Shown in pieces: positions 2,249 to 50,988 of a DNA stretch of 64,000 nt. Both the position numbers and the translations under genes were made by a program. The stretch lies in NCBI GenBank assembly GCA_963838485.1, contig CAWIRY010000115.1:2323-66322 (forward strand), read 5' to 3'. Position 1 is the first letter of the stretch. Each line of letters begins with the position of its first letter. A model generated the notes under the pieces. It was not told where the DNA came from. It was given only the letters and a program-made list of their open reading frames with translations, and made no database searches. This DNA is from an uncultured delta proteobacterium. GTDB lineage: Bacteria > Desulfobacterota > RBG-13-43-22.

Positions 2249-2602
2249 TCAGAAATTAAAGACTTTGGCTTCGGCGGCCAGATCGATCAAATGGGGTCCC
2301 CCATCCAGGACCATATTGGAAAAGAATTTGGCCTCATCCACCTGACGGGCCTTGGCACAGGGGATTCAGACCCCGATGGGGATCTCGTTTTCCACCAGAT
2401 AGGGCAGATAGTCATCGGGGCAGTCTCCGGTTGCCGTTTTGCCGGACATATCCCGGCTGGAATCGGCCCATCTTACCCCGTCGTCGATAAAAAAGACATC
2501 CACCTTATGTCCTTTGGAATGGGCGATCTTACTGAACTGAAAACACCGGGTGGCACTTCCCACCTCATCTTTGCTCAAGACAAATAAAAAATTGGCCATC
2601 AC
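2249..2602 (-). CDS. DsrE/DsrF (YchN)-like family protein with an in-frame TGA (candidate selenocysteine, UxxC motif).
   Basis: Minus-strand ORF MMANFLFVLSKDEVGS...LPYLVENEIPIGV-[TGA at 2366..2368]-IPCAKARQVDEAKFFSNMVLDGGPHLIDLAAEAKVFNF. The reading frame continues cleanly through the TGA to a TGA stop at 2249-2251. An AAGGAG RBS precedes the start. The total of about 117 aa is typical of the DsrE family. Confidence 0.65.
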
Positions 2603-2620
2603 TTTCTCCTTGTTAAATTT

Positions 2621-3061
2621 TTAATCCCTTATTTGTGTTACAGGGTCTCCAGTTTTAACCTCTCCACTTTCAATGACCTGACAAAAAACGCCTTTGGTCG
2701 GTAAAAGCGAATATCCCTTGTAATTGTAGGTATGAGATCGGGAGAGGTCTTTCCCGAGTTGAATGATTATCAGTTTGGCTTTGCCTACCTGTAGTTTTGA
2801 TCCACAGTCCATGGAGTGGATATCGATTCCTTCGGTTCTGATATTTTCGGCAAAACATCCGGGTTCTGCTGAAAGGCCGGTTTCCCGGCAAAAGGTTTGG
2901 ACATCCTCTTCGGCCAGGAGACTGACCTCCTTTTCCGTTCCGGCATGGGAATCCCCCTCGAGACCCCAGGCCACCCGGAACAGACCAGCCTTAGCATTTT
3001 TTTTCGGTTCGGGCCGTTTTGGACTTAAACACACCCCAAGCACTTTACCGGATTTTTTCAT
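2621..3061 (-). CDS. MOSC domain-containing protein.
   Basis: 146 aa with ...GLEGDSHAG..., a MOSC-like beta-barrel signature. Confidence 0.65.
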   Translation of the reverse strand: MKKSGKVLGVCLSPKRPEPKKNAKAGLFRVAWGLEGDSHAGTEKEVSLLAEEDVQTFCRETGLSAEPGCFAENIRTEGIDIHSMDCGSKLQVGKAKLIIIQLGKDLSRSHTYNYKGYSLLPTKGVFCQVIESGEVKTGDPVTQIRD

Positions 3062-3092: not shown

Positions 3093-3698
3093 TTATTCAA
3101 AAGCCATTTCCGGTTTCCAAACTTCCCAGACCTTACCCACCAAATCAGGTCCGGGTGTGAGGGTCGTATTCCCCGGCTGCCAACCCGATGGTGTGGCCTC
3201 ACCCGTGGCCCGAACATGCTGGAAGGCCTTGACCTGTCGTAAGAGTTCCGAGACATTCCGGCCGACCGGTGGGGTAACCACCTCCATGGCTTGAATGATC
3301 CCGTCAGGGTCTATCAGGAAACGCCCCCTGATGTCAACACCGGCTTCATCGTCGTAAACCCCATAGACCTTTCCCACCAGTCCCCCGGCATCGGAGAGCA
3401 TGGGAAAGGGTATTCCCCCCTTGACCATTTTGGAAAGTTCCTCTTCATTCCAGATCTTGTGTATAAAACGGCTGTCTGTGCTCACTGAGAGGACCTGGAC
3501 TCCGAGGGCCTTAAATTCTTCATATTTGGAGGCGACCGCCGCCAACTCGGTGGGTCAGACAAAGGTGAAATCACCCGGATAAAAACAGAGTACCACCCAC
3601 TCCCCTTTAAATTTGGAGAGACTGATGTTTTCAAAACCGCCATCGATAAAGGCGTTCACTTCAAAATCAGGTGCGGGTTTGCCCACTTTTGCCGTCAT
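3093..3698 (-). CDS. 2-Cys peroxiredoxin (AhpC/Prx1 family) with an in-frame TGA at the peroxidatic Cys position (candidate Sec-peroxiredoxin).
   Basis: Minus-strand frame: [47 protein letters not shown]-[TGA 3555..3557][28 protein letters not shown]... The canonical FTFVCPTE motif has Cys replaced by TGA. An AGGAGG RBS lies 7 nt upstream of the ATG at 3696-3698. The ORF tracks 3555..3806 and 3093..3545 are the two halves. Confidence 0.85.
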
Positions 3699-3872
3699 GA
3701 TAACCTCCTGTGGTGTGTTGGGGTTTCCTGATTCGACCGATTCCGTCCGGGGTACCCCGATCGGACCCTTTGCCGGCTTTACACAACCATCTTTTGCTTT
3801 AGCCATAATAGTCTCCTTAATGTTTTAGGTAAAACAACTTTGTATTGAATGGACGACTATTGACGATCTCTT

Positions 3873-4628
3873 CTAAGACTTTAAAATTCGTAAGTTCAGC
3901 TTCCGGACAAAATTTTTAAAATCCCGTGTACCACCTCCTTCGCTTACCATTTGCAAAATCCCTTTTGGATCAATAATCTCTATCCCGGAAAGCATGGTGA
4001 CCGGGGTGTCTTTAAAGGCCTCTTTTAAAAGCGGGGTTGAAGTCCCTAAGAGGACCACCTCCCGGCAGGAGGCCGCGGCCCTGAGCAGAGGATCGATGGT
4101 ATTATTGAGAAGTGTCGTTGAAGTGATCAGGGCAATCTGGCATTTAGGCAGCCACTCAAAGGCGGCCTCTTCCGGCAGGATCTCCCCGGGCTGTTCCCAT
4201 TTTTCAAAAATGGTCAGGTGTTTTACCCTCTTTTTCAGTTCGGATACCATTGGGGCAAAGTATCCTACCATACCCACCTCATCCCCGGGGTGGAGATTCA
4301 GGACCTTTAAAATATCCCCTTCCTGTGCTCCATGGATTTGATGATTTATCAGGGCATTGGCCGCGGCCAACCCCACGGTGGCTTCAATTTTTTCACCTGA
4401 ATTGAGCCCGGACAAAAGCGCGCCCACCGGCCGGCCGGCCAAAGGACGGAGGCCATGGAATACGGAACAGCCGCCCGGCAAATCCTGTCGGAAGGTTAAG
4501 GCCAGGCCGGTCCGGCCCGATTCGAGTTGCACCGCTGTATACCCTAAGCCGATACGCACATCTTTGACTTCTTCTTTCATGCCCTTGTCTCGCAGGGCTT
4601 GGATAATCTTTTCCTGTATTTTTGTCAT
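3873..4628 (-). CDS. DUF364/DUF4213-type Rossmann-like domain protein (hypothetical).
   Basis: 251-aa ORF. Domain-level resemblance only. Confidence 0.45.
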   Translation of the reverse strand: MTKIQEKIIQALRDKGMKEEVKDVRIGLGYTAVQLESGRTGLALTFRQDLPGGCSVFHGLRPLAGRPVGALLSGLNSGEKIEATVGLAAANALINHQIHGAQEGDILKVLNLHPGDEVGMVGYFAPMVSELKKRVKHLTIFEKWEQPGEILPEEAAFEWLPKCQIALITSTTLLNNTIDPLLRAAASCREVVLLGTSTPLLKEAFKDTPVTMLSGIEIIDPKGILQMVSEGGGTRDFKNFVRKLNLRILKS

Positions 4629-4630
4629 CG

Positions 4631-5572
4631 TTATCTCCTGACTTCTTTCCCCATGAGGGCAACCAATCCCTGAAGACGTTCTTCCGCCTCTTGGGTCATC
4701 TGCCTGAAAAGTTGGGCTATGGTCACCTCCTCTTTGATCAAGGCCGCGGCCTGCCCCATCAGGAAGACTCCTTTTTCCATGTCACCCTCGGTAACCGCCC
4801 TTCCAAGGGAGGCTATCGTCAGGTCATCAATCTTTTTTTTATTTCCCCCTTTTTTTTCCAGCCCGATGATTTCCCGGGCTTGTTTATTTTTAAGGACCCG
4901 AAACTCCAAACCGGTAAAACGGCCGATAACCGTGGTATCCCCATCCCCGGCCGTCAAAATCGCCTGTTTGTATAAGGGATGAAGTGTGGCTTCCCGGGTA
5001 GCTAAAAGCCGAGTGCCCATTTGAACCGCCTCCGCCCCCAGGGCCAAGGCTGCAGCCGAACCCCGTCCATCGGCAATCCCTCCCGCCGCTATCACCGGCA
5101 GGTCGGTAGCATCCTTGACCAGGGGAACTAAAACCAGGGTGCTTATTTCATCGGGACAGAGATTACCACCGGCTTCTGACCCCATGGCAATCAAGGCATC
5201 CGCCCCGGCCTGATCCGCTCTTTCGGCCATCTCCCGGTTGAAGACAACCTGCAAAACAATCCGCCCGGCCTTTTTGAATCGATGGACCCAGGGAAGAGGA
5301 TCCCCGGCAGAGAAATCAATAACGGGCACCTCTTCGTCGAAAACCACCTCGATGGCTTCCTTGGCTGAGCCCAGACGGAGGGGGATGTTGATGGCAAAGG
5401 GCTTTGCGGTTATCTGGCGAAGCCGCCTAATTTCCTTCCGTAAGTCTTTCGGTTGAAAGGTGGCCGCCGCAATGGTCCCCAGCCCTCCGGCTTCACAGAC
5501 CGCAGCGGCCATATCCGCCCCGGTAATCCAGGCCATGGCCCCCTGGAGAAGGGGATATTGAATTTTAAGCAA
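4631..5572 (-). CDS. Nitronate monooxygenase / FabK-like NAD(P)H-dependent flavin oxidoreductase.
   Basis: 313 aa, MLKIQYPLLQGAMAWITGADMAAAVCEAGGLGTIAA... This is the NPD/FabK TIM-barrel signature. Confidence 0.75.
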   Translation of the reverse strand: MLKIQYPLLQGAMAWITGADMAAAVCEAGGLGTIAAATFQPKDLRKEIRRLRQITAKPFAINIPLRLGSAKEAIEVVFDEEVPVIDFSAGDPLPWVHRFKKAGRIVLQVVFNREMAERADQAGADALIAMGSEAGGNLCPDEISTLVLVPLVKDATDLPVIAAGGIADGRGSAAALALGAEAVQMGTRLLATREATLHPLYKQAILTAGDGDTTVIGRFTGLEFRVLKNKQAREIIGLEKKGGNKKKIDDLTIASLGRAVTEGDMEKGVFLMGQAAALIKEEVTIAQLFRQMTQEAEERLQGLVALMGKEVRR

Positions 5573-5696
5573 GCGGGTTATTGAAGTTTGAATGGCTCAC
5601 CTCCTGGGAAATTCTCATTCTTTTCCCCACCTTGTAGAGGCAAAATTTTCAGCCGGGGTGGCCTGCCGGATATCGATGGAAATCCGATCCGGATGA

Positions 5697-7052
5697 TCAT
5701 TTAACCGCCACCCTTAATTTTGCCAATGCCTGGTGCGCGGCGTTGATCAAAGGGTGCACCGTGGGCGCCGAAGTGAGCAAGGGATGGGTGGCGATCTGCA
5801 TCATATCCAGGTCGCGGACATTCAGCTTAGTCTGTATCCCGATGGCTATGGTATTGATTAACTCACCGACGGAGGGCCCTCCCGACAACTGACCGCCAAG
5901 CAGCGTCCCCCCTTTATCGGCGAAGATCAGCTTGACATTCAGCGGGGATGATCCGGGAAGTACTCCCGGGTGGCGATCCGGGGCAACGGCCTGACCCGTA
6001 ACAATCCTAAATTTCTCTTGTTCACAGGCACGGCAAGTCATCCCGGCGCTGGCCAGGGAAATATCCCCGATCTTGGTTGAAAAGGCAGAGACGGTCCCCT
6101 GAATCTGCCGGAGAACGCGGATACCGTAAATATTGGTTCCGGCGATTCTCGCTTCAGCCGTCGCTGTTGAGGCCAGCCAAACAGGGGCCTCTTTTCTGGT
6201 AAAAAAATCCCGTTTCAAAGCGCAATCACCCACAGCGAAAACATTTTTCGTTCTGGTTCTCATATAAGAATCAACCCATATAGAGCCGCTTTCGGTGCAA
6301 AACAATCCTGCCTTTTTGGCCAAATCAATGTTCGGTTTGCCACCGATGCCCAGGATGACGAGATCGGCGGCCAGGGTCTCTCCGTTATCCAGAGTGACTG
6401 ATTCCACCCGGGTATTTCCATCAATGGATGCGGCCCGCCGATTACAATGAATGACGACCCCAGCCCGCTCCGGTTCCTTGGAGGCATCATCAGAGAATTC
6501 ATCGTCAAAGGCACCGCTAAGAAGCTTCGGCACCATCTCCACGATATGCACCTTGGCCTTGGAGTTGCGGGCCAGTTCGTCGGCAAATTCCACCCCTATA
6601 AAGCCTCCTCCGATGATAACCGCCTGCCTGGCCCTTTGCGCCCTTTCCCGGAGAGCAGTCATGGCCGAAAGGCTTTTTTCAATGGCAAAAACGCCATCTC
6701 TTTCGATGCCGGGAATAGGAGGGATAATGGGCTTGCTCCCGGTGGCCAGGGCCAGCCTCTCATACTGAAGTTCCTGGCTCGATTCCAGGGTCAACTTGGA
6801 GGCTACTGTATCTAAGGAAATCGCTTTGCCGACTATGATTTCTATACCTGCCTTCTCTAAAGGCGCCATACCCATGATGTTCTGGGCCGGGTCAGCCAGG
6901 GTGTGCATCATGTAAGGAATGGCGCAGGGAATTACGCCATCGGCGATTTCCTTGATGACACAAACCGACTTGTCAGGATAAACACTTTTGGCTGTGAGGG
7001 CCGTGATAACCCCTGCAGGTCCCCCGCCGACTATGATGATATTGTAGTTCAT
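5697..7052 (-). CDS. FAD-dependent pyridine nucleotide-disulfide oxidoreductase (NADH oxidase / CoA-disulfide reductase family).
   Basis: 451 aa, MNYNIIIVGGGPAGV (FAD GxGxxG), a VIPCAIPY active-site Cys, and a second Rossmann fold VIIGGGFIGVE. Confidence 0.8.
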   Translation of the reverse strand: MNYNIIIVGGGPAGVITALTAKSVYPDKSVCVIKEIADGVIPCAIPYMMHTLADPAQNIMGMAPLEKAGIEIIVGKAISLDTVASKLTLESSQELQYERLALATGSKPIIPPIPGIERDGVFAIEKSLSAMTALRERAQRARQAVIIGGGFIGVEFADELARNSKAKVHIVEMVPKLLSGAFDDEFSDDASKEPERAGVVIHCNRRAASIDGNTRVESVTLDNGETLAADLVILGIGGKPNIDLAKKAGLFCTESGSIWVDSYMRTRTKNVFAVGDCALKRDFFTRKEAPVWLASTATAEARIAGTNIYGIRVLRQIQGTVSAFSTKIGDISLASAGMTCRACEQEKFRIVTGQAVAPDRHPGVLPGSSPLNVKLIFADKGGTLLGGQLSGGPSVGELINTIAIGIQTKLNVRDLDMMQIATHPLLTSAPTVHPLINAAHQALAKLRVAVK

Positions 7053-7137
7053 TTTATTCTCCTTTCGTCTGTCAGTTTACCCATTAATTATAGGGTGGTG
7101 TCTTTGAATAAAGACCTCATAACCATTTATTTACCGT

Positions 7138-7932
7138 CTATATTTTCCCCCTTCTTCTTAAGGTGTCTTCGTCACTGATCGTTTTGGTGAATCTCTTCTG
7201 ACTCTCATAGATGGAAATGACATGGAGTCCGTTAAAAAAACCCTTGACTTTAAGCAGCTCTTCCCTTCCGACCGGATCAACTCCGCAAGGTCGTAAGGGG
7301 GTATTGAGTTGTATTTCATCGGGAAGGATTTTTTTTGTTATCCGTAAAATCTCTTCGGCATAGTTTATATTTTCTTTTAAGAACATAATTTGCAGTGCAA
7401 GCCTTCCTTGAAAATGTCTTTTGAATTCCTTTAACCCTTCCAGGATTGTATCAAATCTTATGCCTTTAAGGGGTTGATTGATCATTTCAAAAGATTCCTG
7501 TGAGAAGGCATCCAGTTTGCAAATAACGAAATCAGCGCCTGCTAACTCTTTCCTGACATCCTTTCTGCCCATCAATGATGAGTTGGTAATCACGGCAATA
7601 GGCTCTTGCCTGATTGCCTTTACGGCATTAATCATCTGCCCCAAATTTGTTGCCAGGGTAGGCTCGCCCCTTCCCGAGAAGGTAATATAATCTATGGATA
7701 TTTGGGGGAGGGCCCTAATTTCTTCCAAAATATCTTCGTTCGAAACGTACTGCTGACGTGTTGCCGTAAGGGACCCGGTCTTTCCCAACTGACAATAAAG
7801 GCAATCGAAACTGCATATTTTATCCTTTTGTGAAAGCAGGTCCACCCCGAGGGAACTCCCCACTCTCCAAGAAGAAACCGGCCCGTAGATATATTGAAGT
7901 TTTGTTTTCATTGGGGCCACATTCTTACGCAC
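7138..7932 (-). CDS. Radical SAM protein.
   Basis: 264 aa with CSFDCLYCQ (CxxxCxxC) after YIYGPVSSWRVGSSLGVDL. Confidence 0.75.
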   Translation of the reverse strand: MRKNVAPMKTKLQYIYGPVSSWRVGSSLGVDLLSQKDKICSFDCLYCQLGKTGSLTATRQQYVSNEDILEEIRALPQISIDYITFSGRGEPTLATNLGQMINAVKAIRQEPIAVITNSSLMGRKDVRKELAGADFVICKLDAFSQESFEMINQPLKGIRFDTILEGLKEFKRHFQGRLALQIMFLKENINYAEEILRITKKILPDEIQLNTPLRPCGVDPVGREELLKVKGFFNGLHVISIYESQKRFTKTISDEDTLRRRGKI

Positions 7933-7967
7933 CTATGATTTCTTCAATGTCACTGTTGAATTTTGTC

Positions 7968-8606
7968 CTATTTTTCTTTCTCTCCGTAGATCAATTTCGA
8001 CCTTCCGGTCTGGCTCATCTCTTCGGCTATATTTTTGAACTTTTCTCCCAATAAGGCCCCTTCTTCAAGAAAATTTCTTGTATTCTTGGAGCCGAGGAGC
8101 AGGAGCCTGAGATAAAAAAGTAGGCGTAGAAATAGTTTTTCGGGTTTGGCATGCTCCATCAAACAGAATCTCCCTCCCTGCCTGAGAACCCTGGCCACTT
8201 CATCGATGGCCATTGTCCTCTCAACTCCCTTCAATTCATAGAAGGCATGGGAGCAGGTGACCCCATGAAAGGAGTTGTTCTTAAAAGGTAATTGGGCGGC
8301 GTTGGCCTGGACCAGTCTGAGTTGGTTCATATTCAACTTTGTCGCCTTTTCTTTGGCTTTTTTAAGCATCCCCATGGAGAAATCGAGACCGATTACCAGG
8401 CCCTTCTTTCCTGCCCGCTTTCCTAATTCGATGGCCACTGAACCAGTTCCGGTGCAGAGATCCAAAGCCCTGTTTCCTTCTGAGAGATTTGCTTTCTCCG
8501 TGATAAATCTTCTGAGAGAACCCTCGATATCCCGGGAATGTAAGCGGATGATAACGTCGTAAATTCTCGAAAAAAGATCATAATAGATTTGTCTCAGAGA
8601 TTTCAT
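7968..8606 (-). CDS. Class I SAM-dependent methyltransferase.
   Basis: 212 aa with LDLCTGTGSVAIEL (motif I) and LIGLDFS. Confidence 0.8.
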   Translation of the reverse strand: MKSLRQIYYDLFSRIYDVIIRLHSRDIEGSLRRFITEKANLSEGNRALDLCTGTGSVAIELGKRAGKKGLVIGLDFSMGMLKKAKEKATKLNMNQLRLVQANAAQLPFKNNSFHGVTCSHAFYELKGVERTMAIDEVARVLRQGGRFCLMEHAKPEKLFLRLLFYLRLLLLGSKNTRNFLEEGALLGEKFKNIAEEMSQTGRSKLIYGEKEK

Positions 8607-8635
8607 ACTGAATTACGCTTCGAGTCCTGTCTCCT

Positions 8636-9232
8636 TCAGATTAAAAAAATCGCCGCCGCTATCACCGTGGTCCAGAGACCATTCCCCCTGGTAACGCAAG
8701 TGGTGGAAAAGGTGTCCACAATCTTTCCACTCATCCGATAAATTTCCCGTCTCTCGTCATAATCCTTTTGCGGGTCAAAATCGATCCCCAGGGTTGTGGC
8801 CAGCATAGTGGAAGCCAGATCTTCGGCAAAGTCGCTCATGACTTTCTCGTTCTCACCAAAGGCTGAATGTTCGGATAGATATCCATAATGACCTTCGTCC
8901 GTTGGGACTGCCAACCCGATAGAGGCTCCCATTAGTCTTTCGGGTTCATTGGAGCTGATCTCGGCCAGAACACAGTAGGTGATTTGACCCGGTAAAAGTT
9001 CTTTAATCCCGTCATCAAAAGGAATGAGCTTACAATTAGGAGGAAAGATCGAAGAGACGTAGACCAAATTACATTTCTCGATCCCGGCATCCCTCAAAGC
9101 CAGTTCAAAAGACTGCAATTTGGCCTCATGGCGGCCGATCCCTTTGGTGAAGAAGACCTTTTGGGGAACCAGCCAGACCTTATCGAGTTTGCCCGATCCC
9201 CTTCTTTGATTTGATTTGAAAGACGAATTCAA
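8636..9232 (-). CDS. pdaD: Pyruvoyl-dependent arginine decarboxylase.
   Basis: 198 aa with the [10 protein letters not shown] self-cleavage serine site and the overall PvlArgDC pattern. Confidence 0.75.
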
Positions 9233-9253
9233 ACCTTTCCTCCTTAGTTTTTT

Positions 9254-9613
9254 TTATCCATGGGGGATGTCCTTTTGAGGAAGCGTAAACCGGAAGGTAC
9301 TGCCCTTTCCCGGTGTGCTTTCGACCGAGATCGTTCCACCGTGGGCCGACACTATGGCTCTGGCGATGGATAGACCAAGTCCAGATCCTTCCCCGTTTCT
9401 GTTTATCCGGCAAAAGGCATCGAAAACGCAGGGCAAATCTTTTTCGTCAATTCCAATACCGGTATCCGACACCTCAACCATGATGTCGTGTTCCCTTTTT
9501 TCGAGTTTAACAATGACCTTTTCCCCTGGATTGGTGTATTTTATGGCATTATCCAGCAAATTTTTTAAGGATCCGTGGTCAGTCTTTTTAATTTCAATCT
9601 TGCGGGGAAGCAA
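9254..9613 (-). CDS. Histidine-kinase-like ATPase (HATPase_c) domain only. Truncated sensor-kinase remnant with a TTG start; possible pseudogene.
   Basis: 119 aa with the N-box LKNLLDNAIKYT, G1 DTGIGI and G2 GSGLGLSIA, but no HisKA/H-box. The upstream sequence is occupied by the CDF-NifX gene. Confidence 0.45.
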   Translation of the reverse strand: MLPRKIEIKKTDHGSLKNLLDNAIKYTNPGEKVIVKLEKREHDIMVEVSDTGIGIDEKDLPCVFDAFCRINRNGEGSGLGLSIARAIVSAHGGTISVESTPGKGSTFRFTLPQKDIPHG

Positions 9614-10937
9614 CGAATGAATGCTCTTCCCTTCCTATCTCAGATTCCTCAGCCGGGTGCGGTGCGGTAATCGGTTCGCTCTGGTGGTTCCCGAATTTTT
9701 CTATGGTTTCAAGTACCGTCGAACCTTCTTCGGCCCGATAGAGGTCTAGAAAATGGTCTTTCAGCATATGGAAGGAAATCTCCCCGATTTTAGGTGTAAA
9801 AACAATATCCAGATTGTGCTTGATGACAGCCTTGATGACCTTTACCCCCACATGGATCCGGTCTTTTGTTTTAATAAACTCGTTGTAATAAAAATCCTCG
9901 ATCTCCAGGCCATTGCTGTTGAGCTTGAGAATGATGAAATAAGGGGCCCTCCCGAAGTGTCCAAATACTTTCGAATCCAATCCGTTGATATCTCCTACCG
10001 GGATTATTATTGACAGGTCGGTTTGTTTAGACGGTTCTATGTGCACGAAAACCGATTCAATTCCATCATAAGTTTTTATCACACGCTCTTCCACCTGGTC
10101 TGCCAGCTCATGGGCCTTATACACCGTCAAGGAAGGGCTGGTGGTGATGATACATTCCACCATTTTGAATGGCCCGAACTGCCGTATTTTTACCCCTCCC
10201 ACCCCCTTGACGCCCATCATTTTTAATAGTTGGCCTTGTATCTCTTGCTGCAGCTCTGGATCGAGGTTGGCGTCCATCAAAATCAGGATGGGCATCCAGA
10301 CATTCTTCAGGCCGAGACGGATAATAAGCAGGGCAATCAACATGACCACTGCACCCTCCCCGTAAGGGACCCGGTTATAGGCCAACAAAAGACCAGTCAG
10401 AACAACCAGGGAGATGCCTATATCCATAAAAGATTCAGAGGCATTGGCTAACAGGGCCCTCGACTTAATGGCCTCGCCTGTTTCTTTTTCCTTTTTGGCC
10501 ATGAAATAAGCCGCGGCCAGGGAGAGAACAGTAACCAAAACCGGCAGGATCGGAAAGGTATGCAAGGCCGGGATAAGAAATAGTTTTATAAATCCCTGAT
10601 ATAGATTCTCCAACCCAGCCAGGGTAATCAATATTCCAATGACCAGGGTTACGAACGTCTCGGCTCGGTATAATCCATAAGGAAATTTTTTACTTTTTTT
10701 TCGGGAAGCCAGCCAGAGCCCTAACCAGGAGGCGAAGATGGCCACAACGTCAACGCCGCTGTGGAAGGCGTCGGCGATGAGAATTCTGGAATCGAACAGG
10801 GTGCCTATGATAAATTTGCTAAGGGCCAAAAATAAAATCAAAAGGGATGCGGTCAAGGCAACCTTCTGACCCTGTTTAAGGCTATCGGTATGGTCTTTCG
10901 CGGTTTCCATTTTTTTCGTCGAAACTCGGCTAATCAC
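9594..10937 (-). CDS. Cation diffusion facilitator (CDF) transporter fused to a C-terminal NifX/NafY-like (dinitrogenase FeMo-cofactor-binding family) domain.
   Basis: 447 aa. The N-terminus has 6 TM helices and a CDF cytoplasmic domain. The C-terminus reads ...LSIIIPVGDINGLDSKVFGHFGRAPYFIIL...IVFTPKIGEISFHML..., the same motif as the free NifX-like proteins at 15919 and 16510. The true start may be the internal METAKD at about 10910. Confidence 0.7.
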   Translation of the reverse strand: MISRVSTKKMETAKDHTDSLKQGQKVALTASLLILFLALSKFIIGTLFDSRILIADAFHSGVDVVAIFASWLGLWLASRKKSKKFPYGLYRAETFVTLVIGILITLAGLENLYQGFIKLFLIPALHTFPILPVLVTVLSLAAAYFMAKKEKETGEAIKSRALLANASESFMDIGISLVVLTGLLLAYNRVPYGEGAVVMLIALLIIRLGLKNVWMPILILMDANLDPELQQEIQGQLLKMMGVKGVGGVKIRQFGPFKMVECIITTSPSLTVYKAHELADQVEERVIKTYDGIESVFVHIEPSKQTDLSIIIPVGDINGLDSKVFGHFGRAPYFIILKLNSNGLEIEDFYYNEFIKTKDRIHVGVKVIKAVIKHNLDIVFTPKIGEISFHMLKDHFLDLYRAEEGSTVLETIEKFGNHQSEPITAPHPAEESEIGREEHSFVASPQD

Positions 10938-34473: not shown

Positions 34474-35565
34474 TTATGGTTTGCAGGTGACATGACAAAC
34501 ACCGGTCGGCGTTTCTACGGCAAAGGGGAAGTATTTCCGTTTGAACCAGAGGGCTACGTTGACCAGACTGATCAGGACCGGGACCTCGACCAATGGGCCG
34601 ATGACGGCGGCAAAGGCCGCTCCCGATTTGATGCCGAAAACGGCCACGGCCACGGCAATGGCCAGCTCGAAATTATTGGAGGCGGCGGTGAAGCTCAAGG
34701 TGGTGGCCTGTTCATAAGTCGCCTTGACCTTCACGGACATATAGAAAGAGATAAAGAACATGATGACGAAATAGATCACCAAAGGCAGGGCAATACGCAG
34801 CACATCTAAGGGCAATTGGACGATATATTCCCCTTTGAGAGAGAACATGACGATAATGGTGAAGAGCAGGGCGATGAGGGTGATAGGACTGATTTTGGGG
34901 ATGAATTTTTCATGGTACCAAATCTTGCCCTTGATTTTGATCAGGGTGAATCGGGTGATGATCCCGGCAATAAAAGGAATCCCCAGATAAATAAAAACAC
35001 TCTTGGCGATCTGGCCGATGGAGATGTCCACCACCGTGCCTTTCAGGCCGAACCAGCCCGGCAGGATGGTGATAAAGATATAGGCGTAAACGGAGAAAAA
35101 GAGGACCTGAAAGATGGAATTGAAAGCCACCAAACCGGCACAGTATTCGGTGTCGCCAGAGGCCAGTTCATTCCAGACAATGACCATGGCGATACAGCGG
35201 GCCAGACCGATCATGATTAAACCCACCATGTATTCCGGGTATCCGGCCAGAAAAAGGATGGCCAGAAAGAACATGAGGATGGGGCCGATAACCCAGTTCT
35301 GGATCAAAGAAAGCGTCAGTACCCGGTAATTTTTAAAGACTTCCCCCAGTTCCTCATACTTGACCTTGGCTAAGGGTGGATACATCATCAGGATCAGGCC
35401 GATGGCGATGGGGAGATTGGTGGTGTCATATTGGAAGAGATTCCAGAACTGGACCACCTGGGGATAGAGATAGCCGGACCCTACACCTACCAGCATGGCC
35501 AAAAAGATCCACAGGGTCAGAAAACGGTCCAGAAAGGAAAGTTTTTTAGGGGTTGGTTCGGTCAT
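34474..35565 (-). CDS. acr3: Arsenite efflux transporter, ACR3 family.
   Basis: 363 aa, [25 protein letters not shown]... with 10 TM helices. Confidence 0.9.
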
Positions 35566-43787: not shown

Positions 43788-44864
43788 TTACAGAAGGGCA
43801 TTAAAGAGAAAACCCACCAGAAGAATTCCCGTTGCCACCACCCCGACAAAGACCGCAATGAGCCGTGGTTTCAAGACCTTTCGCAGGATAATGGTTTCCG
43901 GCAATGATAAGCCGATAACGGCCATCATAAAGGCCAGCACTGTGCCCAGGGCGGCCCCTTTTTCCAAAAGGGCCTGGACTACCGGGATGATCCCGGCGGC
44001 ATTGGAGTACATGGGAACACCCAACAGGACGGCCAAGGGGACCGACCACCAGGCCTCTTTGCCCATGATGGAGGCCATAAAACCAACGGGAACGTAGCCG
44101 TGGATGGCCGCGCCGACAGCGATACCGGCAACAACATACAGCCAGACTTTGCCGACGATGTCTTCGACCGCCTGCCAGGCGTAGTCGATCCGGCTCGACC
44201 AGTTCAGGGTTTCCATGAATAAGGGGGAGCCGTTGGTCCTGATTTCCCGGACCCAATCTTCGATATGGTTTTCCATGTGTAACCGACCGATGACCCAGCC
44301 GCTGACAATGGCAATCATCAATCCGGTCGTCAAATAGAGGAGGGCCACCTGCCAGCCAAAGAGCCCGAACAAAAGCACCAGGGCGATTTCATTGACCATG
44401 GGGGCAGAGATCAGGAAGGACAAAGTGACTCCCAAAGGTACCCCGGCTTCGACAAAGCCAATAAATAAAGGGATGGCCGAGCAGGAGCAGAAAGGGGTGA
44501 CGATTCCCAGGCCGGCGGCCAGAACATTTCCGGCCGATTCCTTTTTGTCGGCTAAAATAGCCCTGGTTTTTTCCGGGGTAAAGAAAGAGCGCAGGATCCC
44601 CACTCCAAAGACCACCAGGGTAAGGAGCATCAGCACCTTGGGGACATCGTAGAGAAAAAAGGCGATGGCCTCGGCCAAATGAGTGCCTCTGTTCAGGCCA
44701 AACAAATCAAAGGTCAACCACTCGGTGAGTTTGGGCAATTGATAATAGAAAATCCACCAGGCCATCAAGGCCACCAACAGGATAAGCAGTTTTTTTCGCA
44801 GGCTTATTTGGCCGGAATTTTCATTGATCCTTTGAATACATTCACAGGAAACGGTGTCGTTCAT
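43788..44864 (-). CDS. arsP: DUF318/ArsP-family permease (organoarsenical efflux type).
   Basis: 358 aa with the TPFCSCSAIP motif. Confidence 0.7.
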   Translation of the reverse strand: MNDTVSCECIQRINENSGQISLRKKLLILLVALMAWWIFYYQLPKLTEWLTFDLFGLNRGTHLAEAIAFFLYDVPKVLMLLTLVVFGVGILRSFFTPEKTRAILADKKESAGNVLAAGLGIVTPFCSCSAIPLFIGFVEAGVPLGVTLSFLISAPMVNEIALVLLFGLFGWQVALLYLTTGLMIAIVSGWVIGRLHMENHIEDWVREIRTNGSPLFMETLNWSSRIDYAWQAVEDIVGKVWLYVVAGIAVGAAIHGYVPVGFMASIMGKEAWWSVPLAVLLGVPMYSNAAGIIPVVQALLEKGAALGTVLAFMMAVIGLSLPETIILRKVLKPRLIAVFVGVVATGILLVGFLFNALL

Positions 44865-49130: not shown

Positions 49131-50988
49131 CTAAAAGGGAACTATAAAATCCATTTCTTTTAATTTTTGACCCAATTGTTCATAGGTAATGGGCTGAAAC
49201 CCATACTTCTCCACATTGGCCGGGACGTTGGAATATAATTCACCCTCCATATCCAGGACTGTGCGTCTTCAGCCACGATTGGACAAAGTTAGCATTAAAG
49301 GAGTTTGCATTTAGATAGCTGGTCTGGGCAAAAGTGGCTATAATTTAAATAGCCATAGAAAGGAACAAGAGGATGGAAACAGCAATCGCCCAGAAAGTGG
49401 ATCAGGAAGAAAGAGCACCGCAGGGAAGCGCGGCAAAACTCATCAGGGAAATTCGGACTAAGAACCGCAGGAAGTTCTCCTCAGAAGACAAGATCAGGAT
49501 TGTACTTGAAGGATTCCGAAAGGAACAACCCATCTCAGACCTCTGTAGAAGAGAGGGCATTTCATCTGCCCTTTACTATTCATGGCTCAAGGATTTCATG
49601 GAAGCAGGCAAGGCGCGCCTTAAGGGTGACAGCCTGAGAGAGGCAAACAATATTGAAGTCAAGGAACTCCGGTCAGAAAACGGCAGGCTGAAAGAGCTGG
49701 TAGGAGAACAGGCCCTGCATCTGCAGCTTTTTAAAAAAAGTCTGAATCCGTAGCGGAAGGCTGGTACCGGAAGATGGATGGGAAGAGCAGAGAGGATCTG
49801 ATCGTGAAGATAGAGAAGCAGGAAGGCAAGAAGGGTGAGGCGCTCAGAGACCTGGATATACCAAGGTCTACCTATTACACCTGGCGGAAGGCCTATCAGT
49901 CACAGGGGATAGAAGGCGTTACCAAGACAAAACCCTCAGCCAAACGTATATGGAACCGACTGAGAGCGGTTGAGGTCGAGCAGGTGCTTGAAATTGCTCG
50001 CCTTACTCCAGAGCTTTCTCCAAGGCTTCTGGCTGTGAAGATCAGCGATGAAGAGGTCTTCTCAGTGTCAGAATCAACGGTCTATCGGATACTGAGGGAC
50101 AATAACCTGATAGCTCCCCGTCCACTTCCGGAGATGCCGGCTGAGAAACAGTGGAGGCATAAGACCGCTCATCCTGATGAACTTTGGCAGTGTGACGGAA
50201 CAAGCCTTTTTGTCATAGGATGGGGATACTACAAGCTCATCCCTGTTGAGGATGATTACTCACGAAAAATAATAGCTCATGACTTACGGCCTGATGAAAC
50301 AGGATTCAGCGTATCGGACATAATGGAGATGGGCATAGAGAACGCCAGAAGAGAAGGGCATCTGGTTGCCGCCATGCCGAAACTTTACACAGACAATGGC
50401 TCAGGCTTTGCCTCAAAGGTCCTTGCCGGGTATCTGGACGTCCATGGGATAAGACATATCTTCGGCACCCCATATCATCCTCAGGGCAGAGGGAAGATTG
50501 AGCGATTCAATCGGAGGATCAAGGAGAAGCTATGCCTTATGGTTTACTGCTCTCCCGATGAGCTCAAAAAGGCAATTGATGAGGCCATAGCAATCTATAA
50601 CGCTACCCCGCATGAAGCATTGAACAACGTATCCCCCAATGATGTCTATGCGGGAAGAAAGGAGGCCATTCTACAGAAGAGAAAAGAAAAAAAACAATTG
50701 ACCATGCAGCGGAGGAAACAGTACAATTTATACGGCAATGGGATTAACAATGATGGCTCAGATCAGTATCAAAGTGCAAACTCGCTATGACAAAATCTGT
50801 CCAAAAAGGTCTGAAGATATACAATCCAGGACCCAATCCAGATTTTCGCGAAAAGGCTCGGTCATTTCCACTTCATGATCAAGGACAAAGAAATACACCG
50901 AGTTATTCTCTGCAGCCAAGCCCAGGGTTGAGCGAAGCCCTTCCCAGTCTTCCTCCTTGGATCTTATTAAGAAAGCCACTTTTTTCAT
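49131..50988 (-). pseudogene. DsrF/TusC-like gene split by an IS insertion (N-terminal part 50824..50988, C-terminal part 49131..49258).
   Basis: N-terminal part [40 protein letters not shown]...DWVLD. C-terminal part VLDMEGELYSNVPANVEKYGFQPITYEQLGQKLKEMDFIVPF*. Both junctions carry GTCCTGGAT. Confidence 0.6.
49259..50823 (+). mobile_element. IS3-family insertion sequence: orfA 49373..49753, an A7 slippery site at about 49733, orfB 49774..50790 with an rve DDE domain. Imperfect terminal IRs TGTGCGTCTTCAG... / ...CTGAAGATATACA. Flanked by a 9-bp direct repeat ATCCAGGAC.
   Basis: OrfA has an HTH and leucine zipper (…LKDFMEAGKARL…ELVGEQALHLQLFKK). OrfB has DDE residues (DGT.., ..TDNGSGF.., ..E). 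The ends begin with TG and end with CA. Confidence 0.85.

Follow-up and report, generated by a model that had tools for sequence, protein, structure and literature searches.

A DsrE-like gene of an uncultured deltaproteobacterium with an in-frame UGA that is probably read as selenocysteine

We find that a minus-strand gene in the 64-kb stretch of DNA analysed here (the window) most probably encodes a 116-residue selenoprotein of the DsrE/YchN fold, in which codon 78, a UGA, would be decoded as selenocysteine (Sec) by way of a bacterial SECIS element located inside the open reading frame (ORF). We put the probability of this reading at about 0.9. It upholds the interpretation given in a preliminary description of this DNA, which had seen a DsrE-family protein with an in-frame TGA forming a UxxC motif, and it makes the gene a real, routine member of a selenoprotein family that is already known. 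Because DsrE-like UxxC selenoproteins have been published, the scientific gain is small. The branch to which the gene belongs is widespread in sulfate-reducing Desulfobacterota and could help those who seek the function of the family. Feature coordinates are collected in Table 1.

Table 1. Positions of the DsrE-like gene, its elements and other features of the window
Feature	Position	Strand	Remarks
DsrE-like selenoprotein CDS (predicted)	2249..2599	(-)	116 codons + terminal TGA; DsrE/YchN fold
Ribosome-binding site AGGAG	2606..2610	(-)	6 nt upstream of ATG; direct sequence reading
Start codon ATG (likelier start)	2597-2599	(-)	AGGAG spacing; orthologue M-A-N-F starts
In-frame UGA, codon 78, predicted to be read as Sec	2366..2368	(-)	Cys-aligned in orthologues
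Codon 81, Cys (TGT), putative resolving/partner cysteine of U-x-x-C	2357..2359	(-)	invariant Cys81
Predicted bacterial SECIS hairpin inside the ORF, GGCCCGUC-AGGUG-GAUG(A)GGCC	2330..2351	(-)	codons 84-90; conserved fold
Apical loop of the predicted SECIS, AGGUG, 5 nt	2339-2343	(-)	hairpin fold
Terminal stop TGA	2249-2251	(-)	translation; second TGA in frame
MOSC-domain (Moco sulfurase C-terminal) gene	2621-3061	(-)	ends 21 nt before DsrE-like start codon
Candidate Sec-peroxiredoxin	3093-3806	(-)	TGA 3555-3557, FTFV-U-PTE, Cys-aligned
PAS + sigma-54-activator regulator ORF	1-~1655	(-)	556 open codons, runs off window start
Cation-efflux (CDF) protein fused to Nitro_FeMo-Co (NifX-like) domain	9594-10937	(-)	domain match
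SBF/Acr3-like carrier	34474-35565		
ArsP permease	43788-44864		
ORF with integrase core (rve) + HTH, probably IS-element transposase	49774-50790	(+)	domains

An in-frame TGA within a DsrE domain

The preliminary description had reported a 78-aa ORF that ends at a TGA and whose frame continues for 38 more codons of clean DsrE-like sequence. The ORF listing indeed contains a minus-strand ORF (2366..2602, 78 aa) with a GTG start and a TGA end. We consider the ATG of Table 1 a likelier start than this GTG, judging from the sequence around it; since all orthologues begin with M-A-N-F at the ATG, the part preceding the TGA is 77 aa long rather than 78, while the TGA end and the continuation of the frame stand as described. 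Translation of 2246-2602 on the minus strand gives MANFLF...ENEIPIGV, a stop, IPCAKARQVDEAKFFSNMVLDGGPHLIDLAAEAKVFNF and another stop, with exactly 38 sense codons between the two TGA codons. The motif around the first of these, GV-U-IPC, would read U78-I-P-C81 and is of the UxxC type.

Read through with Cys in place of the stop, the protein matches the Pfam DsrE domain (PF02635) over positions 3-116 of 116 with an E value of 5.6e-18 and 65.7 bits (cutoff 22.7), confirming family membership over the full length; the 77-aa product covers positions 3-68 only, about the first two thirds. The continued frame goes far beyond chance. Among 5.8 billion proteins searched, 1249 homologues were found; those that match best have 116 aa and cover 100% of the query at 70-80% identity. 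With the C-termini of the 116-aa homologues, the 38 codons beyond the TGA share about 75% identity. When 19 homologues are aligned, Cys occupies position 78 in 19/19, in the context G-[VI]-C-T-P-C-A, and few parts are better conserved than the 38 residues at the C-terminus. P0002, from Desulforhabdus amnigena, is one such natural Cys homologue. Translation, Pfam and the homologues' C-termini therefore all bear out the clean DsrE-like continuation.

Public databases contain the exact 77-aa product, which falls into a cluster of 25 members at 90% identity. The 15 cluster members listed are all 77-78 aa long, and several of them go under the name 'tRNA 2-thiouridine synthesizing protein D' or TusD, which looks like a systematic mis-annotation of this branch: the gene and its close relatives, at least 24 of them, are databased as 77-78-aa proteins without the active site, where the proper reading would be a 116-aa selenoprotein.

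Since the PDB sequence search gave only a weak DsrE match (E 0.04), a fold search was needed. For this we took P0001, the closest Cys homologue, whose AlphaFold2 model is confident (pLDDT 94, pTM 0.87) and has residue 78 closing strand 75-78 directly before helix 79-84. Foldseek matched this model in the PDB to Escherichia coli YchN (1jx7, TM 0.81), Allochromatium vinosum DsrE (2hy5_A) and E. coli TusD (2d1p_A), and further to a Sulfolobus DsrE/DsrF-like protein. Residue 78 pairs with Cys78 of DsrE 2hy5_A, in a sequence alignment that is weak by itself (E 0.04) but has the fold match behind it. In A. vinosum DsrE, Cys78 binds sulfur and is essential in vivo (PMC3397948). Sec would accordingly sit, as had been suggested, in the position of the conserved active-site Cys.

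Sec- and Cys-forms across species

We searched 185,579 species, each represented by one genome, at the nucleotide level with the pattern GGN RTN TGA AYN CCN TGY GCN N7 MGN N7 GAYGA, for which about 0.5 matches are expected by chance according to our own base-frequency estimate. The pattern was matched in at least 120 species genomes, nearly all of them Desulfobacterota or "delta proteobacterium" assemblies. The TGA lies in frame at the same codon in all matches listed (at least 120 loci), and nearly all matches listed have the DsrE-like N-terminus, the 38 conserved codons and a stop, the exceptions being a few contig-end or damaged copies. One direct orthologue with TGA (L070) comes from the MAG of "Olavius sp. 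associated proteobacterium Delta 1". As a matched control, the identical pattern with TGY for TGA was run on metagenome contigs, and we compared 83 unique full-length Sec-forms among the matches listed with 97 unique Cys-forms.

Codon 78 encodes Cys in 97/97 Cys-forms, in a C-x-x-C motif. Cys81 is kept in all 83 Sec-forms (among the matches listed) and in all 97 Cys-forms, and over the same two sets Cys19 is conserved in 179/180 and Cys60 in 172/180. The preliminary description had asked for conservation of Cys or Sec at this position and had held that its reading would fail if orthologues ended at the TGA and the codons beyond it were not conserved. We find the opposite: orthologues carry either Cys or, in at least 120 species genomes, TGA, and the downstream codons are conserved.

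The nearest neighbour of 82 of the 83 Sec-forms (among the matches listed) is another Sec-form, identity being 76% within the Sec and Cys groups and 73% between them, and the Sec-forms have residues unlike those of the Cys-forms at Ile79, Gln86 and Val87. In these sequence comparisons the Sec-forms look like one old clade, so that the 120 genomes do not amount to 120 independent origins; being mutual nearest relatives, they owe part of their shared sequence to inheritance. The branch motif, U-I-P-C-A-x-x-R-Q-V-D-E together with an almost invariant SECIS, occurs in at least 120 species.

A few Cys-forms resemble former Sec-forms, among them P0017, L130:139-179 (-) and L164:677-717 (+). P0017 has the residues of the Sec branch, but with Cys (G-V-C-I-P-C-A-N-A-R-Q-V-D-E). 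In L130, CGUCAGCUCGACGAG is preserved; its stem is still complete, and the loop reads GCU instead of GGU. To judge from their sequences, they may be recent Sec-to-Cys reversions with fossil SECIS elements. Two different Sec-form copies, L009 and L020, lie on separate contigs of JBEKPW01 (Syntrophobacteraceae SPRUCE 473), and the Sec-form can therefore be paralogous within a genome.

A hairpin in the reading frame tied to the TGA forms

A search for a SECIS element downstream of the TGA, which the preliminary description had proposed as a check, revealed a hairpin that spans 14-35 nt past the UGA, with a UGA-to-loop spacing of 22 nt. In the window the hairpin has 8 bp, with a bulged A and a single G.U pair, and as an isolated 26-nt sequence it folds with an MFE of -11.9 kcal/mol (z = -3.0; matched by 1 of 200 shuffles). 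When the U of UGA is numbered 1, its core reads C22-G23-U24-C25 / A26-G27-G28-U29-N30 / G31-A32-C33-G34, that is, 4 bp and a 5-nt loop AGGUN, and this core is intact in 119/119 distinct Sec-form sequences among the matches listed. The SECIS loop of E. coli fdhF is likewise of this kind, AGGUC, in which G23 and U24 contact SelB. The rule for bacterial SECIS elements is a distance of 16-37 nt between UGA and apical loop (PMC10778597), and the apical loop is small and contains a guanosine (PMC1088965); the window hairpin agrees with both.

Since the search pattern itself fixed columns 22, 23 and 31-35, the matched TGY control run was required. The 4-bp core is intact in 83/83 Sec-forms (among the matches listed) versus 2/97 Cys-forms, and the loop AGGUN is present in 82/83 Sec-forms among the matches listed. 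The same difference is visible codon by codon when the 83 Sec-forms listed are set against the Cys-forms. For Arg85 the Sec-forms use CGT throughout (83/83), and the Cys-forms use CGC (33), AGA (20), CGT (19), CGG (14), AGG (7) and CGA (4). At codon 86 the Sec-forms again have a single codon, CAG (83/83), where the Cys-forms encode Asn, Lys, Gly, Gln, Asp or other residues; codon 87 is GUN (Val) in 82/83, against Leu, Met or Ile. Asp88 is GAC in 82/83 Sec-forms (Cys-forms: GAC 54, GAT 43) and Glu89 is GAG in 78/83 (Cys-forms: GAG 42, GAA 55). Elsewhere in the Sec-form genes, Arg18 and Arg49 are encoded by several codons (six at Arg18), and the mean synonymous-codon entropy of these genes is 0.31 bit at codons 85-89 versus 1.34 bit at 60 other conserved codons. 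Third-position pairwise identity elsewhere is 0.45 in Sec-forms and 0.44 in Cys-forms. With synonymous sites elsewhere saturated, the frozen block of codons is not explicable by recent common ancestry. The matched comparison offers a clean textbook case of an in-ORF SECIS that freezes synonymous sites and dictates Gln86 and Val87.

The lower stem adds a signal in two registers: C21 pairs with G37 in 26/27 sequences, with A35 bulged as in the window, and in the alternative register U21 pairs directly with A35. The mean stem extension is 2.88 bp versus 2.37 +/- 0.06 upon shuffling of the 3' flanks among sequences, 0 of 2000 shuffles being as high. In a single-register 8-bp model the pair counts do not exceed those of column shuffles, the signal being visible only with the two-register reading. 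RNAalifold predicted only the invariant 4-bp core, with a covariation term of about zero; as the core hairpin is invariant, it contains no compensatory changes. Single-sequence folding of 59-91-nt segments was no better than shuffles. Searches with Rfam returned no SECIS family and only chance matches, both over the whole window at the gathering threshold and over 2250-2450 at E <= 10. Because the hairpin is specific to the Sec-forms, their synonymous sites are frozen, and Gln86 and Val87 are fixed, we predict that it is a bacterial SECIS. The proposed check thus yielded a hairpin that is conserved at the nucleotide level in the Sec-forms listed and, with 2 exceptions among 97, absent from the Cys-forms.

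These data also bear on three other readings of the TGA. According to the first, it is a genuine stop, only a 77-residue DsrE fragment is made, and the 38 codons are the untranslated remnant of a pseudogene or split gene. Gene callers do read the gene in this way, as the database entry of the exact 77-aa product attests, and some termination at UGA is to be expected under selenium limitation. However, the 77-aa product would be deprived of the last third of the DsrE domain, including the active-site position, nor would an untranslated remnant keep an uninterrupted frame and about 75% protein identity in at least 120 species whose synonymous sites are saturated. A genuine stop would also leave unexplained a hairpin specific to the TGA forms, and we regard it as very improbable.

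We assign an equally small chance to read-through of the UGA without Sec machinery, either by near-cognate insertion of Trp or Cys or because UGA has been reassigned to sense. UGA-to-sense reassignments and leaky UGA codons exist in bacteria, and the Sec machinery is not seen in the 64-kb window: it contains no tRNA gene at all, hence no tRNA-Sec, and the 20 window ORFs checked include no selA, selB or selD. Yet UGA still terminates the window gene and is the terminal stop in 25/83 Sec-form genes among the matches listed, the window gene included, from which it follows that UGA is still a stop in these organisms, against a reassigned code. The homologues, moreover, always have Cys at the recoded position, which is the signature of Sec and not of Trp or Gly, and the hairpin, with the geometry and loop of a SECIS, is strictly tied to the TGA forms. 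The hosts, finally, are Desulfobacterota, reported as the phylum richest in selenoproteins (PMC1794560).

The third reading is that the TGA stems from an error of sequencing or assembly, or that a Cys codon (TGT or TGC) recently mutated to a stop in this genome alone. A single substitution would be enough, and Cys-forms are abundant, but this reading is effectively refuted by the TGA found at the same codon in all independent assemblies among the matches listed (at least 120), in Sec-forms that make up a clade of their own with Ile79, Gln86 and Val87.

Host, gene neighbourhood and relation to known systems

With no Sec machinery in the window, we infer the Sec competence of the genome from the SECIS, from the phylum of the host and from another candidate selenoprotein that the window encodes. 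Deltaproteobacteria have the most selenoprotein families (PMC1794560). A systematic scan of the window for TGA-split ORFs gave 39 mechanical candidates, of which only the DsrE-like gene and a peroxiredoxin gene about 1.2 kb from it seemed plausible as Sec candidates. The peroxiredoxin TGA lies at the peroxidatic position, in the known TxxU type, and read-through yields a full AhpC-TSA + 1-cysPrx_C protein (E 3e-39), whose true start is likely a later Met and not the upstream ATG at 3806. By eye, a possible hairpin GGCG-GCGGU-CGCC starts 11 nt past this TGA; the computed minimum-energy fold of the stretch differs from it and is no better than shuffles. Given this second TGA gene, the organism probably uses Sec. 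The peroxiredoxin TGA split is also seen in L001 and L071, the two loci with the same neighbourhood as the window.

The DsrE-like gene belongs to a minus-strand run that also comprises genes for a methyltransferase, a radical SAM protein, a pyridine-nucleotide disulfide oxidoreductase, an NMO protein, a DUF364/DUF4213 protein, the candidate Sec-peroxiredoxin and a MOSC protein. Since only 21 nt separate the MOSC gene from the DsrE-like start, these two sulfur-handling domains are probably co-transcribed. Of 102 informative loci among the matches listed, however, only 3 (the window, L001 and L071) have the MOSC gene upstream, and no neighbour family is found in more than 16 of 120 loci among the matches listed; a DsrE-family paralogue, too, is not recurrent among the neighbours of the 120 loci listed. 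The neighbourhood is thus not conserved, and the substrate is not deducible from context. On the downstream side, the PAS/sigma-54 family recurs in about 13 of 120 loci among the matches listed, and in the window a strong sigma-70-like promoter match (TTGACC-17-TATAAT, 2069-2041, minus strand) lies between the DsrE-like and PAS/sigma-54 genes. The upstream redox/metal run (3873-10937, minus strand) includes DUF364/DUF4213 ('putative heavy-metal chelation'), an NMO-family FMN enzyme, the pyridine-nucleotide disulfide oxidoreductase, the radical SAM protein, a UbiE-type methyltransferase and the CDF protein with its NifX-like domain. Together with the more distant ArsP and SBF/Acr3-like carrier, this run may mark a stress or metal-handling region.

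We propose the following mechanism. At UGA78 the ribosome would meet the downstream hairpin, whose loop AGGUG would serve as a bacterial SECIS and recruit SelB.GTP.Sec-tRNA(Sec), so that selenocysteine would be inserted in place of termination. Translation would then proceed over 38 codons to the true stop, which is also a TGA but has no SECIS behind it. Sec78, at the end of the strand and the start of the helix, would take the place of the persulfide-carrying Cys78 of DsrE and TusD, with Cys81 one helical turn further on. The two would form a couple in which the selenolate of Sec78 attacks a sulfane-sulfur or disulfide substrate and the intermediate is resolved by a 78-81 selenenyl-sulfide. 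This is the most likely chemistry as suggested by fold and motif, to which we turned because the gene neighbourhood gives little.

A more far-reaching idea, which we think doubtful, is that the Desulfobacterota-wide branch constitutes a functionally distinct Se-dependent carrier or reductase of persulfide/perselenide, for example one that supplies sulfur for the maturation of Mo-cofactor or metal clusters. NifX-like, NifU-like or Mrp/MinD-type Fe-S genes are near about 10-15% of the other loci among the matches listed, and such a sulfur-supply reading finds no support in neighbourhoods that vary so much.

Among characterised systems, DsrE (DsrEFH of A. vinosum) and TusD (TusBCD of E. coli) share the fold of the window protein (Foldseek TM 0.73-0.78), but no DsrF/DsrH or TusC/TusB genes are adjacent to the DsrE-like gene in the window. 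TusD is the sole match of the window protein among NCBIfam models at E <= 1, and the equivalog cutoffs for TusD/DsrE are not reached (TIGR03012, 22.3 vs 89.25 bits; NF001237, 21.5 vs 92). Because these scores fall below the cutoffs and partner-subunit genes are not adjacent, the window protein is not DsrE or TusD proper. Its Cys81, Cys19 and Cys60 also lack a counterpart at the aligned DsrE positions (Cys81 faces Ala81). The best structural match, E. coli YchN (1jx7), is a stand-alone single-domain DsrE fold of almost the same length (117 vs 116 residues); it has 17% identity to the window protein and, unlike the latter as predicted here, is not a selenoprotein.

SaoD, of the CD2369 family in the SAO system, is DsrE-related and has an invariant CxxC and one further invariant Cys; its members are reportedly never selenoproteins and lie in a conserved SAO gene neighbourhood (Haft preprint 2022). 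The window family is SaoD-like in its C/U78-x-x-C81 and Cys19, whereas no SAO neighbourhood is found at the window locus.

The closest known system is the DsrE-like selenoprotein family itself. It was described as a new family (Pfam02635, UXXC) in the Sargasso Sea study of Zhang, Fomenko & Gladyshev 2005 (PMC1088965), a DsrE-like selenoprotein is listed for Desulfovibrio vulgaris (PMC1794560), and three DsrE-like selenoprotein genes, two belonging to Delta 1, are listed for the Olavius symbiont metagenome (PMC1976440). The family still figures as "DsrE-like protein, PF02635, UxxC" in a 2026 review, which describes such families as functionally uncharacterised (PMC13188914). The statement in the preliminary description that DsrE-like selenoproteins are a described family in deltaproteobacteria is thus accurate, with publications from 2005-2007 that include Olavius Delta 1, and the alignment to the family that it called for shows the UxxC motif as published (PMC1088965, PMC13188914). 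Like the window gene, the family has the PF02635 domain, UxxC at the DsrE active site, Cys-containing homologues, a SECIS in the ORF over the A-R-x-V codons and mainly deltaproteobacterial hosts. The two Sargasso sequences (VPIYI-U-GGCAEARGV...) differ from the window protein in that identity is only 31%, over the C-terminal 51 residues. In the pairwise comparison with AACY01115178 (E 3e-5), U, C, A, A-R and V are in register. With 31% identity and the key residues in register, the window gene belongs to the same family, in a different branch that spans the Desulfobacterota and has a near-invariant SECIS of its own.
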